A DNA stretch of 64,000 nt, from NCBI GenBank assembly GCA_048938895.1, contig JBHLLU010000017.1, positions 11,869-75,868 of the forward strand, in the 5' to 3' direction. A model generated the notes under the pieces. That model was given only the letters and a program-made list of their open reading frames with translations. It was not told where the DNA came from and did no database searches. Shown here in pieces: positions 6,090 through 11,966 of this stretch. Source of the DNA: Promethearchaeota archaeon (GTDB lineage: Archaea > Asgardarchaeota > Lokiarchaeia > Sigyniarchaeales > SOKP01). Position 1 is the first letter of the stretch. The number at the start of each line of letters is the position of its first letter. Position numbers and translations under genes: made by a program.

Positions 6090-7244
6090 CTAAACTAATT
6101 CATGAATAACCTCAACAATACGTTTAGTTCGAGGATCACCTGTTAATGAGAGAACAATCTGATTCATAGCATAAGCATAACATAATTTAGCATCTGGATC
6201 CATAACACACATAGACCCTCCTAAACCACCCCAATAGAATGTTCTTGGATTACTCCCTCTTGGAATTAATAATTTTGGACTGTTTAATCCAAATCCTAAT
6301 CCAAATCGAATTGGGTTCATAAGAACCAGATCTACACCACTAATTTGTTCTTCAATAGCCTTTTCTATCATTTGATTAGATAAGAATTGAATTCCCTCAA
6401 ATTTGCCCCCATTAGCTAAAATAGATCCAACTTTCGCAATTGATCTCGCATTCCCATGTCCATTTGAAGCCGGTATTTCAGCAGCTCTCCACTCCCTTGT
6501 TCTTGTATCTTCATAAGTTAAAATAGGATTAAAAAGTGCTTTCATAAATAAGGTATTTGATTGTAGTTCCTCAAATCCTTGTTGTTGATCTGAAGTTGGG
6601 GGAACTAAATCAGCAACCCGAGAATCGATATCTTCTGTAAAACCAATGTGAAAGTCTGCATCTACTTTTGAGGTTACTTCATCTCGGAAAAATGTTCCTA
6701 AGGTTTTTCCAGAAACTCGCCTAACAATTTCCCCCAATAATTGCCCAAACGTGACTGCATGATATCCGCTTTTAGTTCCTGGTTCCCACATCGGTTTTTG
6801 TTCCGCTAATAACTCTACACTTCGATCCCAATCATATAAATCCTCTTTCTTCATGGGTTTATCATATCCTGATAATCCTGCTGAATGACTTAAAAGATAT
6901 TTAACAGGAATTTTTTCCTTTCCCGATTGTGCGAATTCTGGCCAATATTTAGCAACTGGAGCTTCTAAATTTATTAAGCCTCTGTCTGCAAGCATTAAAG
7001 TACAAAGAGCTGTCATAATTTTTGTTGTTGAATAGACATTTACGATTGTATTTTCTTTCCAAAGGCGGGTTCTTTCTGCATCTGCATAGCCTGCCCATAT
7101 ATCAATAACAAAGTTCCCATTAATCGTAGCTGCGAATGAAGCACCTACCTCCAACCCTTCTTCAAAATTTTTTATGAATGCTTCTTTCACAGGTTCAAAT
7201 CTCTTATCACAAAACCCATGTACTTCTACTTCTTTTTTTGCCAT
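6090..7244 (-). CDS. serine hydrolase, beta-lactamase/esterase family VIII
   Basis: SxxK (YSTTK), LLSHSAGL, YH and WGGLGG motifs. Confidence 0.92.
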   Translation of the reverse strand: MAKKEVEVHGFCDKRFEPVKEAFIKNFEEGLEVGASFAATINGNFVIDIWAGYADAERTRLWKENTIVNVYSTTKIMTALCTLMLADRGLINLEAPVAKYWPEFAQSGKEKIPVKYLLSHSAGLSGYDKPMKKEDLYDWDRSVELLAEQKPMWEPGTKSGYHAVTFGQLLGEIVRRVSGKTLGTFFRDEVTSKVDADFHIGFTEDIDSRVADLVPPTSDQQQGFEELQSNTLFMKALFNPILTYEDTRTREWRAAEIPASNGHGNARSIAKVGSILANGGKFEGIQFLSNQMIEKAIEEQISGVDLVLMNPIRFGLGFGLNSPKLLIPRGSNPRTFYWGGLGGSMCVMDPDAKLCYAYAMNQIVLSLTGDPRTKRIVEVIHELV

Positions 7245-7472
7245 ATATATCCCATAATCAAATCTTTTTTGAAGATCTTAAATTTAGAATAAATTTAACC
7301 TTTCTGATCGCATGACTAAAATTAGTTGGTAATACCTCATCATATGAAAATTGCTTTTGATGTCAGTTATAAAAAAAATAAAACCCTTATTCATAATAAA
7401 ACAATTAAATCTTATATTGTAACATACCTATTATCATAATTATAAATGAAATTCTAATTAAGGTAAAAATTA

Positions 7473-8522
7473 ATGGCTTTATCTCTATTAGGATGGTTTA
7501 ATGGTATAACATCTTTTATAATCTTAGTTTTTTTTGTTCTTTTTGGACTCTATTGTTTATATCAATCTTATAGAACTAAAGCAAAGTTACTCAAATTTTT
7601 TGGACTAGCAATTTTACTTGAAGGATTTGCATTCATTTTTCTAAATGTCGAATTTTTCTCTATTCTATTCTCCATTCTTCCTTTAAATTTCCCGGATAAT
7701 TTGTATTTGCATGTTTTATTAGCTTGGAGTTGGCATGCTCCTGCAGCTTTTTTTATTTTATATATTGGTGTGTGGTTCCTCTTACCGAATTATAAAAAGT
7801 ACCTCATATCTTCTATTTTAATATTTGGTTCTATTTTTTTATTATTTCTACTATTTGATCCTGAAGGTTCACTTACTTTGGAACCCCCTGAGGTGCTAGG
7901 AACAAATTTATATAATGGTTATTTAACTGTAGGTTCAATACCATTCATTGTGGAATCTGCATTTTTTGTTTTGGGTTTTAGTTTGAATGGGTTTGGATTG
8001 TTATATAAAGCATCGAAATCAGAGGGGATAATTAGACGAAAATTTATCCTTATTTCGATTGGGTTTATGACTAATTTTAGTTTTGTTTTATGGGATAGCC
8101 TTACTACCCCTGGATTATCAATTGCTTTTATTCGAGTTGGAATCCTAACTAGCGCTATAATTATTTATTTTGGATTAAGAGAAGAACCCGAAAATAAGCT
8201 AAAACTTGAAAAAGAAATAAAAGTTGAAGGAGATCTTTTTAGAATATCCAATATTCGATCTGGTGAAATAACTGAAGAAGAAGTATCGATTTCAAAAGAA
8301 AAAAAAATCTGTCTTGTGTGTAAGGGAAAATTGGCGAGAGAATTGTACATGTGTCCTGAGTGTAGTACATTCTATTGCCTCAAATGTATTAGTAAATTGA
8401 CAGATTTAGAAAATGCATGTTGGGTATGTGAAACTCCATTTGATGAAACAAAACCCATAAAATTACATGATAATGAGAAAGAAAAGAAAGAAGTCAAAAA
8501 TTCAAAAATAAAAAAAGAATAA
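7473..8522 (+). CDS. multi-pass (about 7 TM) membrane protein with C-terminal 8-Cys RING-like zinc finger
   Basis: About 7 hydrophobic segments followed by CLVC-x10-CPEC-x4-CLKC-x10-CWVC. Confidence 0.8.
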   Translation: MALSLLGWFNGITSFIILVFFVLFGLYCLYQSYRTKAKLLKFFGLAILLEGFAFIFLNVEFFSILFSILPLNFPDNLYLHVLLAWSWHAPAAFFILYIGVWFLLPNYKKYLISSILIFGSIFLLFLLFDPEGSLTLEPPEVLGTNLYNGYLTVGSIPFIVESAFFVLGFSLNGFGLLYKASKSEGIIRRKFILISIGFMTNFSFVLWDSLTTPGLSIAFIRVGILTSAIIIYFGLREEPENKLKLEKEIKVEGDLFRISNIRSGEITEEEVSISKEKKICLVCKGKLARELYMCPECSTFYCLKCISKLTDLENACWVCETPFDETKPIKLHDNEKEKKEVKNSKIKKE

Positions 8523-8615
8523 ATAGCATGATGCAGTTAAAAATTAGGTTTAGCTTTTAGATGAATACCTTGATAATCTGCTAAAAAAATTTTAAAAAAA
8601 ATAAAAAAAAGGAAT

Positions 8616-9839
8616 TTAGCGTTTTAAATTAGCATTAACCCAATCAGTATAACCTTTTGCGTCTAATTCTTTTGGTACAGCTTCAAAGAATTGAGCTGTT
8701 ATTTCTTTTACATGTTTTGCGGCAATTGGATGGAACATCATAGCAAGATCTAGTCCTACAAGACTCAGAGCAAGAGCATTGATGATTTCCCATATAGGAC
8801 CTCTATACTGGCGCAACCCCCATTCAGGGGCAACCTTCTCACTCATCCATGCTTCTCTTGCACCCCATGCATTTGTAGTACCTCCACTAATAGGGTAAGC
8901 AAGATCTGTTTCTCCTAGAAGCCCAGCAATACGCATCCTTTGATATATACTGAAGGAATACTCCATCCCATAGCCAAGAGTAGCGCATGTAGGGTCCATT
9001 ACTATCCTATTTGGAGCAAGTCCTAATTCAAGAGCATCTTTATTCATCTTAATTTGATTGTTCAGATCCAAACTTGTCCACAGCAAGCAATTATGGTCAT
9101 GTTTGACTGCCAATGGGATTTAAAGGTCAATTGATGAATTCAATTGACTTACTTCTTCCCACGTAGCTTTATCTGCCGCGGAAAGCATAAGGACTTCGCT
9201 TTCTGAGATAGCAGCCAATTCTGTGAACATTTCAACATCCTTCTTTTTGTTTCCTGAACACCCAATTATGACAGGAACGTCAACGGCTTGTAGAATCTCT
9301 TCTAGAAATTTTCTTGATTGTGAGACAGGTGCATCACCCATAGCGGGATCAATTTCAAGTGAATGAAAGGTAATACATTCGGCTCCAAACTTCTTTACTG
9401 CAAACTTTGCCCATTCAGCGGGATCCGCGAGAACTTTACCATATTCCTCCTTGATCGGCTTAGGAAGCATCATTTTCGAACCCATATCAAATACGTCATA
9501 GGTAACTAATGGAGGATTCGGATTTCGTTTTTCAAGTCCGAGGAAGTTATAAAAAGGAGGTACGACTTCTCCTCCTATCACAGCTTTTTTCCCATTAGAA
9601 CGGACAAATTCTATGGTCTGGATTTTACCAGGATAGTCAATATCAAGAGCAAATTTAGCAGGAGTCCATTCTGCTTTTCCAGGAACTCCCGGGAGCACCG
9701 CTTGAGCCGCGGTTTGCACAATACTTGGTAACATTTGAAGTTCGAGATATTCGGCAAATAGATCTACGTCTTTCAACTCAATTTCTTCAGTATCCTTCAT
9801 AAACTCTGCGAGTTTCTTACTTAATTCGTCAAATGAAAT
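8616..9839 (-). CDS. cdhD: acetyl-CoA decarbonylase/synthase delta subunit (corrinoid Fe-S protein small subunit), interrupted by a putative 30-nt intron; exons 9839-9150 (or 9800-9150) and 9119-8616
   Basis: IGGEVVPPFY, DPAEWAK, AVDVPVIIGCSGN, IVMDPT..LGYGMEY, NAWGAREAW, RGPIWE, MFHP. The two track ORFs are in the same frame. Probable ATT start at 9839. Confidence 0.92.
9120..9149 (-). other. putative bulge-helix-bulge (BHB/BHL) intron in cdhD mRNA
   Basis: AGTCAATTGAATTCATCAATTGACCTTTAA: 9-bp inner stem, 4-bp GAAG/CTTT helix flanked by TAA and AAA 3-nt bulges, outer TGGGA/TCCCA stem. Excision restores WEEV-IPLAVKH. Confidence 0.8.
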
Positions 9840-9938
9840 TTATATCACTTTTGTTGATTAATTGCTATTTTGATAGATAGACAATTGTAGAATGGAATTT
9901 AAGTTTATTTAAAAAGGATTTACGACGGAATTAGTCAT

Positions 9939-9966
9939 TTGATGTAAGATTGTGATCCCACATCAA
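9939..9966. promoter_or_regulatory. inverted repeat in the divergent cdhD / TPR-gene intergenic region
   Basis: TTGATGT-aa-GAT-tgtg-ATC-cc-ACATCAA. Confidence 0.4.
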
Positions 9967-10133
9967 TCGTTTAAAGTTTAAAAATCAATTATAGGATACA
10001 GAATTTATGAATTAATCTTTTAAGGAAAATTATCTTCTTAATTTTTAACCGAAGTGTAGAATTTAATCAATAATATATTTTGTACTGAAATCTTTTATCT
10101 TTAAAACGAGTAAATAGTAGGATCTTAAAAATT

Positions 10134-11966
10134 ATGCGTATTTCCATGCATCAGGATCTTGAACGAGCCATGAAGCTTATAGGGGAGGGGAAAATAGAGG
10201 AACCTTTACAAATATTTGATAATTTTAAAAATTTAGAACATATAACCCCAAGAGATAAACACTATTATCGTTTTTTTAAAGGGACTATTGTTTTTCAGAT
10301 GGGAAAGCTTCAAGAGGGCCTTAAAATAGCAGAACAAGATTATAAAGAGAATGAAAGTAAGAATAATCCTTTATTTCTAATCGATGCAGTCTTTTTAAAA
10401 TGGAACATCTTACTTCTTTTAGGTAAAGGCCATGAGGAGCGAGAAAACGTTATATTTTGTGAGAAATTGCTTAAATCTGTTACAAAAGAATCCCCCTCCG
10501 AATTAAAATTAAGAGAAGGTTTTCTTTTTTGTATGAAGGGATTTTTTTTATATTGGGAACAAAAGTATGATGAGGCTATAGAACTTTATAAAAAAAGTCT
10601 CTTAATTTTTGAAAAGTATGTCATTACTTCAATATTGATCCCCTTTACTTTAAATTTGCTAGGATTATCTTATAGAGCTAAAGGAGAATTAGATTTAGCA
10701 TTAGAATCTCATAAAAAATGTATAGAACTTTCCAGAGGAAGTAGTATAGCAATCAATATGAGAACTGGAGTCACTTATAGTAATATTGGTGAAATTTACT
10801 TTCAAAAAGGTTCTCTAGATCAAGCAAGTGAATATTACAAAAAAAGTCTAAAAGTTTTTGAACAATATAAAACAGCCTTAGCAGTATCTCGAATAGGAAT
10901 CAGTTTTGATAGCTTGATAAAAGTCTATTTATACAAGCGTTCTCCTGAAGAAGCACAACAACACTTAAACCTTTTCTATCAATACATAAAAAGAAATAAT
11001 ATTTCAAAAAATTTCTCATGGTATAGATTAGCAAAAGCACGAATGCTAAAATCAAGTCCTCGTATCCGAAATAGAGCCGAAGCCGAAAAAATTCTAAGAG
11101 AATTAATTGGGGAACATCGTGGAGTAGATAATGAATTTATAATAGCTATAATCGAGCTTTGTGATTTTTATTTTGAAGAATTACGTCTAACAAACGAAAT
11201 AGAAATAATTGATGATATTCAGCCCCTTATTGAAAGGTTACTAAAGGAATCAAAACGAACAAATTCCTACACACTCCAAGCTCAAACTTACTTATTACAT
11301 GGAAAAATATCTTTACTTCAGATAAATATGAGTGATGCTCGGAGATATTTAACTCAAGCCCAAAGTATTGCTGAGGAGCATGGCCTTCAATTGTTAGCTA
11401 GAGAGATATCAATGGAGCATGATAAATTATTAGATCAATTAGATGAATGGGAGGACCTTAAGATAAAAGAAACCTCAATTTCGGAAAGAATGAACTTAGC
11501 ATCGTTAAAGGAATCTATAGATTTACTACAACGTAAACGTGAGTTAAAAGCACCAGAATTAACTGATGAAGAACCTATTTTGCTTTTAATAATATCAACA
11601 GGAGGGGTTCTCCTATTTTCATATTCTTTTTCTAACGAATTAAAAATCGATGATGAACTTTTCGGGGGATTTTTATCGGCAATAACATCTTTTAGTGATG
11701 AAATTTTCTCTCAGGGGCTTGATCGAGCTAAGTTCGGTTCATATACAGTTCTTATGAATAATGTTGGACCTTTCTTTTTTTGTTATTTACTTAAGGGTCA
11801 AACTTACTTAGCAAAGAAAAAGTTATCTAATTTTACAGAAAACTTACAAAAGAATTCCTCGATGATGGAAACGTTGAATAAATTTAATCAAAGAGGTCAA
11901 GTTATCGAGCTCAAAGATTTTCCCTTTCTTGAAGGTTTTATACAAGGAATTTTTAATAAAAAATAA
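10134..11966 (+). CDS. TPR-repeat protein with C-terminal longin/roadblock-like domain
   Basis: TPR consensus (NIGEIYFQKGSLDQASEYYKKSL); C-terminal LLLIISTGGVLLFSY...LFGGFLSAITSFSDE. Confidence 0.8.
   Translation: MRISMHQDLERAMKLIGEGKIEEPLQIFDNFKNLEHITPRDKHYYRFFKGTIVFQMGKLQEGLKIAEQDYKENESKNNPLFLIDAVFLKWNILLLLGKGHEERENVIFCEKLLKSVTKESPSELKLREGFLFCMKGFFLYWEQKYDEAIELYKKSLLIFEKYVITSILIPFTLNLLGLSYRAKGELDLALESHKKCIELSRGSSIAINMRTGVTYSNIGEIYFQKGSLDQASEYYKKSLKVFEQYKTALAVSRIGISFDSLIKVYLYKRSPEEAQQHLNLFYQYIKRNNISKNFSWYRLAKARMLKSSPRIRNRAEAEKILRELIGEHRGVDNEFIIAIIELCDFYFEELRLTNEIEIIDDIQPLIERLLKESKRTNSYTLQAQTYLLHGKISLLQINMSDARRYLTQAQSIAEEHGLQLLAREISMEHDKLLDQLDEWEDLKIKETSISERMNLASLKESIDLLQRKRELKAPELTDEEPILLLIISTGGVLLFSYSFSNELKIDDELFGGFLSAITSFSDEIFSQGLDRAKFGSYTVLMNNVGPFFFCYLLKGQTYLAKKKLSNFTENLQKNSSMMETLNKFNQRGQVIELKDFPFLEGFIQGIFNKK

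Follow-up and report, generated by a model that had tools for sequence, protein, structure and literature searches.

In this work, we analysed a 64,000-nt stretch of contig JBHLLU010000017.1 from a Promethearchaeota archaeon (hereafter the window), on the minus strand of which the cdhD gene, encoding the delta subunit of CO dehydrogenase/acetyl-CoA synthase (CODH/ACS), is interrupted by a 30-nt insert at 9120-9149 that ends in an in-frame TAA (9120-9122). Sequence comparison strongly supports the initial annotation of this insert as an intron of the bulge-helix-bulge (BHB) type in the cdhD mRNA. The best explanation, and one that we consider highly probable, is that the tRNA-splicing endonuclease EndA would cleave at the two bulges and RtcB would ligate the exons, giving a CdhD product of 384 amino acids. 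Support for this comes from uninterrupted homologs, covariation within the predicted helices, a 29-nt ortholog of the insert, selection on the exons, the presence of the enzyme genes and further introns of the same kind. In what follows, G000 is the genome carrying the window, and other G and L labels refer to the genomes and loci of relatives.

The cdhD locus and the predicted fold of its insert

Exon 1 (9150-9800, minus strand), recognised from the list of open reading frames (ORFs), its translation and its match to the Pfam CdhD family, begins with the ATG at 9800 and ends in GAA GAA GUA, the last codon being that of Val217. Exon 2 (8616-9119, minus strand) begins with AUC CCA, for Ile-Pro, shares the frame of exon 1 and closes with the stop codon at 8616-8618. 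As it stands in the DNA, the minus-strand ORF 9120-9800 terminates ...ATWEEVSQLNSSIDL before the TAA, downstream of which the unchanged frame reads IPLAVKHDH... until the stop of exon 2; the sequence, coordinates, frame and in-frame TAA of the insert were all as initially described. Pfam CdhD (PF03599) matches both halves, over profile positions 7-140 in exon 1 and 138-227 in exon 2, and the adjoining of these positions across the junction indicates that the family expects nothing between them. The read-through protein scores 334 bits against the NCBIfam cdhD equivalog TIGR00381, for which the cut-off is 252.9, and without its 10 insert codons it comes to 384 amino acids.

The search of a large protein collection returned 845 relatives, the best 120 of which are all 382-398 amino acids long. 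The homolog spacing invoked when the insert was first noticed is borne out by all 25 that were aligned (85-92% identity, 383-398 amino acids), which lack exactly these 10 codons; a natural 10-residue insertion at this place occurs in none of them, and the junction motif WEE(D)V^IPLAVK (here and below, a caret marks a junction or cut) is nearly invariant across the set. The closest homologs bear source names such as Promethearchaeota and related labels, that is, Asgard archaea, in agreement with the proposed host. Within the 4.65-Mb, 31% G+C genome, the insert has a single copy (blastn-short with the insert and its flanks; other matches span at most 14 nt) and so belongs to no repeat family. 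Furthermore, cdhD is the sole CODH/ACS delta-subunit gene of the genome, and the CdhC, CdhA-like and CdhE-like genes, on other contigs, are uninterrupted.

The fold of the insert region was predicted with RNAfold on window 9100-9170, minus strand, with 200 dinucleotide shuffles as control. The structure proposed initially, with its 9-bp inner stem, UAA and AAA bulges, GAAG/CUUU helix, outer stem and unpaired A, is recovered as that of minimum energy, at -23.4 kcal/mol with an ensemble frequency of 0.605; none of the 200 shuffles was equally stable (z = -4.9). In this fold, the exonic strand GAAG (9152-9155) pairs with the intronic strand CUUU (9122-9125), which is recognised also from the ortholog comparison, and the resulting 4-bp central helix lies between two 3-nt bulges on opposite strands, UAA at 9149-9151 and AAA at 9119-9121, which is the arrangement that defines a BHB. 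The inner helix h' is a 9-bp hairpin with the 5-nt loop AUUCA (9126-9148). The outer exon-exon helix h comprises 10 bp, formed by 9157-9167 with 9109-9118. Its 5' side (9156-9167) reads GCUA, the bulged C9163 and GUGGGA, followed by the unpaired A9156, and its 3' strand (9109-9118), UCCCAU UGGC, is backed by both the fold and codon usage.

Both flanking helices are present in G000, of 10 and 9 bp, and it is the extra unpaired A9156, opposite the 3' bulge, that makes the motif a relaxed BHB rather than a strict hBHBh'. Cuts after the second nucleotide of each bulge (UA^A and AA^A, between 9150 and 9149 and between 9120 and 9119, respectively) would excise exactly 9120-9149 and leave WEEV^IPLAVK. 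The EndA cut rule invoked at the outset is thereby confirmed to remove precisely the insert and to yield the product seen in the homologs.

Related genomes, covariation and selection

With an intron-free homolog as query against 80 relatives, cdhD was found in 38 of the 48 genus members other than G000, and 19 genomes from outside the genus have it too. This comparison, suggested with the initial annotation, revealed a patchy presence of inserts: none of the 19 matches outside the genus has internal stops, and inside it nucleotide alignment identifies interrupted cdhD in 8 of 39 genes, G000 counted, at three sites. Site 1, that of the window, holds 30 nt in G000, G016 and G005 and 29 nt in G004, and is free of an insert in 107 of 113 aligned cdhD genes. 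Site 2, between DPT and CAT, holds 33 nt in G038 and G048, and site 3, between CAT and LGYG, 36 nt in G022, G019, G016 and G005, such that G016 and G005 carry two inserts each (sites 1 and 3). Interruptions are also found in 13 of 80 metagenome cdhD loci, one of them identical to G005, and genus and metagenome loci together provide 26 insert instances, spanning 29-57 nt.

Sites 2 and 3, both empty in the genome of the window, are only 9 nt apart (DPT^CAT^LGYG). Among the loci, site 2 is occupied in L034, L039, L074 and L119, and site 3 in L028, L031, L036, L038 and 12 metagenome loci. On the metagenome contig L074 (1054-1183) the two inserts co-occur, with a 9-nt micro-exon between them that provides the exonic strands for both BHB motifs; without both inserts, L074 is an open 1152-nt cdhD frame reading ...DPTCATLGYG.... 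The site-3 insert of L070 measures 57 nt owing to an internal tandem duplication of its 5' part, its BHB ends being unchanged, which shows that the interior of such introns can grow.

The inserts share one geometry. When the 4-bp helix was scored in seven registers around the alignment boundary in all 26 cdhD instances, the register with the best helix was in every case the one that restores the protein. All four pairs of the central helix are formed in 23 of the 26, and 25 have the first h' pair. The 3' bulge invariably opens with A, while the central helix differs in sequence by site (GAAG/CUUY at site 1, CCCA/UGGG at site 2, CGCA/UGCG at site 3). The individual minimum-energy folds mostly display the BHB motif; site 1 of G004 adopts a different one, yet a strict hBHBh' can form there.

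Compensatory changes, the search for which had been proposed with the initial annotation, occur at sites 1 and 3. In G005, the site-1 helix GAAG/CUUY has become GAUG/CGUC, with the exon coding Asp for Glu, and at site 3 CGCA/UGCG has become CGCG/CGCG in L118 and UGCG/CGUG in L137. In the four site-1 orthologs, all 16 cells of the central helix are paired, including an A-U to U-G double change; 95% of the cells of the outer helix are paired, and four of the nine pairs of the inner helix are altered on both sides. Over site 1 as a whole, pairing in the alignment reaches 92.3% of cells, and sliding the partner columns lowers this to 19-47%. Six pairs are altered on both sides, with the observed score reached by 1 of 500 shuffles, a figure that, resting on four related sequences, counts as support and not as a formal probability. 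Indeed, the covariation alignments are small and phylogenetically structured throughout. The peptides encoded by the inserts are unconserved while the base pairs are conserved, and the covariation supports the view that it is structure rather than sequence that is maintained in the orthologous introns.

Two readings without splicing can be weighed against these comparisons. In translational recoding, the ribosome would read through or bypass the insert with no RNA processing, in the style of phage T4 gene 60, where matching take-off and landing codons flank the stretch skipped by programmed bypass. A stable hairpin straight after a sense codon, followed by a stop, is superficially like such bypass signals, and the site-1 inserts of G016 and G005 are free of in-frame stops. 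However, the 29-nt variants (cdhD of G004 and the PurM-like gene of G024, described below) shift the frame and other inserts hold two stops, which together exclude simple read-through. Take-off and landing codons are also unmatched, with GUA before the insert and UAA just ahead of the landing site, and both the drift of the insert peptides under conserved pairing and a geometry that is exactly that of an EndA substrate, exon pairing included, make recoding very improbable. Alternatively, two halves of 226 and ~165 amino acids, the second restarted from a TTG at 9113, could assemble into a working delta subunit, and a TTG-start ORF does open 6 nt past the TAA. Such a split protein is harder still to credit: the same two site-1 inserts are stop-free, other carriers have their break elsewhere or have two, a 9-nt micro-exon is present in one locus, the break falls inside an invariant motif and nothing in this scheme gives a reason for a conserved BHB fold.

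The interrupted genes have the marks of functional ones. Removal of the inserts yields open 1152-nt frames in all eight carriers of the genus, with no other lesion. Of the 28 carrier pairs, 20 allow dS to be computed, and their dN/dS lies at 0.019-0.059. dN is 0.05-0.12, and in every pair the synonymous sites are saturated or nearly so (pS 0.65-0.84). The carrier exons are thus under strong purifying selection, and their remaining open despite saturated synonymous sites indicates that the gene is not long dead.

These figures bear directly on the possibility that a palindromic insertion or small mobile element killed cdhD, leaving a scar whose BHB-like fold is coincidental. The in-frame TAA would fit a pseudogene, the insert is largely palindromic, like many insertion footprints, and the 2-nt AA repeat at its borders is readable as a target duplication. 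Nevertheless, the genome holds none of the similar copies that would be expected of an element resembling a miniature inverted-repeat transposable element; orthologous inserts persist in genes with the open exons and low dN/dS just described; four independent sites in two genes present the same 4-bp helix and 3-nt bulges at the protein-restoring register; the exonic strand of the helix covaries with the intron; and the gene affected is the only cdhD of a genome in which the other CODH/ACS genes are intact. The selection analysis thus largely refutes a dead gene, an account to which we would assign hardly any likelihood.

The exons themselves seem to have adapted their synonymous codons to pairing in the outer helix. 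Ile-Pro is written ATC-CCA in five of six site-1 carriers and in 7 of 107 non-carriers, and the outer 10-bp helix has at least nine pairs in six of six carriers and in 26 of 107 non-carriers, contrasts that are inflated by relatedness.

A second split gene, the splicing enzymes and the proposed route

Following the suggestion that other split genes with BHB motifs be sought, the genome was scanned on both strands for BHB cores whose excision fuses two long, otherwise separate open frames, with frame-shifted controls. A loose pattern (the 4-bp helix plus two of the first three h' pairs) has ~3 million matches per strand, and its frame-restoring matches, 9648 and 8436, show no excess over the 8280-9902 of the controls; thresholds on constrained core energy gave no excess over controls either. 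In a strict scan, which demanded that the minimum-energy fold contain the BHB exactly and that an intron of no more than 80 nt separate exons of 100 amino acids or longer, two matches were left genome-wide, cdhD and one further gene, which is PurM-like, while four control sets totalled two rows from one weak locus. With exons of at least 40 amino acids and a prefilter, six matches were obtained against one in each of two frame-shifted control sets; the four additional candidates were rejected as weak (-6.7 to -10.9 kcal/mol), with translations that are not protein-like. Since the looser scans bring no credible extras, detectable mRNA introns are few in this genome, a scan of this design being one that very relaxed motifs and stop-free in-frame introns would escape.

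The PurM-like gene, which lies outside the window and matches Pfam AIRS and AIRS_C while staying under every NCBIfam cut-off, is split into ORFs of 162 and 287 amino acids by a 30-nt intron with two in-frame TGA codons (G000 C101, 4435-4464, plus strand, equal to 1936-1965 of locus L041). It folds, at -23.1 kcal/mol, into a strict hBHBh' whose outer helix has 11 bp. Of the 46 genus genomes having the gene, 10 carry the intron, which measures 29 nt in G024, and 97.8% of its cells are paired, against 30-55% with slid partners. Cutting at the EndA positions restores the frame in all 10 instances and leaves intact exons in all 10, with no internal stop in nine; the single stop in G030 is read as the gene's own terminator within the fetched stretch. 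The median pN/pS of the exons is 0.21, a figure that carries a small misalignment from MAFFT gap placement. This intron and those at the three cdhD sites all fall within invariant peptide motifs, a placement that recalls inteins and homing introns.

The genome encodes the enzymes for the route claimed initially, EndA plus a ligase. Two genes of the EndA family (PF01974/TIGR00324), at C83 69404-70012 on the plus strand and at C123 60543-61145 on the minus strand, specify proteins of ~200 amino acids each. Compared with fused enzymes, one aligns to the C-terminal, catalytic repeat and the other to the N-terminal repeat, which is the pattern expected of alpha and beta subunits; RtcB is encoded by one gene, in the region C5 38935-40242. 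According to the accessible part of PMC5829648, Asgard archaea have an (alpha-beta)2 EndA with an L1 loop that gives broad, relaxed-BHB specificity, and such an enzyme would accommodate the extra unpaired A9156. Across the whole genome, ARAGORN predicts an intron in 17 of 34 tRNA genes, mostly of 6-33 nt and with a few predictions clearly spurious. Some calls are implausible, with introns of 771 and 2807 nt or odd anticodons, and these calls, together with a count of only 34 tRNAs, suggest that further disrupted tRNA genes were missed by ARAGORN.

Some other machinery acting on the RNA, be it a different endonuclease with a ligase or self-cleavage, could in principle take the place of EndA, and the G000 motif is indeed one unpaired A off the strict form. 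Such machinery is not needed, however, and we consider it improbable: the frame-restoring cuts obey the EndA rule in all 26 cdhD and all 10 PurM-like instances, the PurM-like intron is a strict hBHBh', the genome encodes both EndA subunits and RtcB, and window 8900-9400 matches no Rfam family, ribozymes included, at E values up to 1.

From the anatomy of the locus, the homologs without the insert, the conserved and covarying structure, the selection on the exons and the enzyme genes, we infer cleavage, ligation and the fate of the intron in vivo as follows. The cdhD pre-mRNA would fold such that exonic GAAG pairs with intronic CUUU, the 4-bp helix being bordered by the two 3-nt bulges, the 9-bp intron hairpin and the exon-exon helix. 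A two-subunit (alpha-beta) EndA would cut after the second nucleotide of each bulge and RtcB would join the exons as GUA^AUC, giving a mature mRNA for the normal 384-aa CdhD with the junction peptide ATWEEVIPLAVK. The 30-nt intron would be set free, probably as a circle, and any unspliced mRNA would yield a truncated product of 226 amino acids.

Several points weigh against this reading. The central helix has one mismatch (three of four pairs) in 3 of the 26 cdhD instances, namely site 2 of L074, L073 and L095, and the relaxed motif of G000 depends on a broad-specificity EndA whose activity here we infer. The covariation of the PurM-like intron does not go beyond that of shuffles (99/500 and 78/500), because this intron varies little. 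On the cdhD protein tree, which represents one very conserved protein, carriers are scattered beside intron-free sisters (with support of, for example, 99/98 for G016 with G014 and 96/83 for G000 with G019), and many gains, losses or transfers must therefore be assumed; recombination between alleles could likewise yield this pattern. Archaeal translation can start on nascent mRNA, and some truncated product is possible. Finally, the genome is a draft of 174 contigs with a contamination estimate of 7.49%; here, an assembly artefact is very unlikely, given that the insert recurs in genomes and contigs independent of one another.

As for its role, the cdhD intron is most likely a tolerated passenger that is constitutively removed and belongs to a small, evolutionarily dynamic set in this genus. 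That it serves as a dedicated regulatory switch is improbable, as its patchy presence among sister species points to a dispensable element and fits a tolerated passenger better than a conserved switch. More tentatively, and with the balance of our judgement on the other side, the genus may host an active population of BHB mini-introns that repeatedly colonises the most conserved motifs of protein-coding genes. What prompts this idea is the occurrence of three cdhD sites, of up to two introns per gene, of the micro-exon and of the PurM-like site, as well as the scatter of carriers and the observation that, from species to species, site-1 introns differ less than do the saturated synonymous sites nearby.

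In its genomic setting, cdhD is isolated from the other CODH/ACS genes, which sit on contigs C28, C83, C139 and C144. Its neighbours (window 6090-11966) are a serine-hydrolase-like ORF, a large TPR-like protein and a membrane protein with a C-terminal Cys-rich tail, and no tRNA was found in the window.

Known systems and significance

EndA-dependent archaeal mRNA introns are known from very few cases, the cbf5 coding sequence and one Haloferax 5' untranslated region (UTR), as far as the accessible parts of the sources tell. In the available portion of PMC7714728 (2020), the cbf5 intron of Crenarchaeota is the only mRNA intron reported before that paper, besides its own Haloferax 5'-UTR case, and that of PMC2738675 describes the cbf5 intron as gained and lost and the splicing of other archaeal pre-mRNAs as unconfirmed. 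Repeated intron gain at BHB-capable sites has been reported for Asgard tRNA genes (10.64898/2026.10.13.758758), in a study that, in its accessible part, does not treat introns in protein-coding genes or mRNAs. A search that left subscription journals and supplements aside brought up no report of BHB introns in the protein-coding genes of Asgard members, and in the literature searched the introns predicted here would be the first of the EndA type in mRNAs of Asgard archaea, the sister lineage of eukaryotes.

What our analysis adds to the knowledge of such introns is that one gene can have several sites and that species differ in whether an intron is present. There is also a practical side, in that genes of this kind get called two fragments or pseudogenes, and metabolic reconstructions of such genomes may therefore score the Wood-Ljungdahl pathway, wrongly, as broken. 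The natural alleles with and without the intron provide a series for studying the gain and loss of BHB introns, and the same series can be used to ask whether synonymous sites in coding exons become adapted to form a splicing motif. Were an active mini-intron population to exist, the closest archaeal relatives of eukaryotes would possess a spliceosome-independent 'genes in pieces' system for mRNA, with a gain mechanism of its own, for example reversal of EndA/RtcB followed by recombination, or transfer between alleles, and CODH/ACS output could depend on splicing capacity.

The nearest known relative is the BHB intron of cbf5 in Desulfurococcales and Sulfolobales, which, as described in PMC2738675, is likewise short, lies within the coding sequence and breaks the frame, is recognised as a BHB by a hetero-oligomeric EndA, and has a patchy distribution among related species that was interpreted as gain and loss. 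The cases differ in host gene, here cdhD and a PurM-like gene, and in lineage, here Asgard and not Crenarchaeota; the cbf5 of G000 itself is uninterrupted, its TruB_N matches lying in one stop-free open frame of 342 amino acids. Moreover, a single gene here has three sites, as many as two introns can share a gene, and a 9-nt micro-exon occurs in one case. The splicing of cbf5 has been demonstrated experimentally, whereas that of cdhD is predicted from sequence. The BHB intron in the 5' UTR of Haloferax volcanii HVO_1309 (PMC7714728, in its accessible part) is alike in having an mRNA substrate outside tRNA and rRNA, but it concerns an untranslated leader, a euryarchaeon and a homodimeric enzyme, whereas the introns considered here are within coding sequences and their precise removal is needed for the frame.

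Archaeal pre-tRNA introns, including those of some intron-rich Asgard classes covered by the available text of 10.64898/2026.10.13.758758, share the motif, cut rule, size range and enzymes. Here, by contrast, the host is an mRNA and the exon halves of the motif are made of codons, such that pairing would be maintained through synonymous choices.

A more distant parallel is the splicing of HAC1 and XBP1 mRNAs by Ire1 and a tRNA ligase (RtcB in metazoa), in which a short intron is excised from a coding mRNA independently of the spliceosome, by cuts in loops, altering the reading frame or the C-terminus. Ire1, switched on by stress, cuts the 7-nt loops of two stem-loops, whereas the cdhD fold contains two bulges and just one loop, of 5 nt, as a BHB substrate of the EndA type. 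Nothing points to signal-dependent cutting here, and a HAC1/XBP1-like regulatory switch for carbon fixation is speculation; the likeness is an analogy of logic and not one of membership. The finding belongs instead with the cbf5-type class of mRNA introns, which it would extend to a central carbon-fixation gene and a PurM-like gene.

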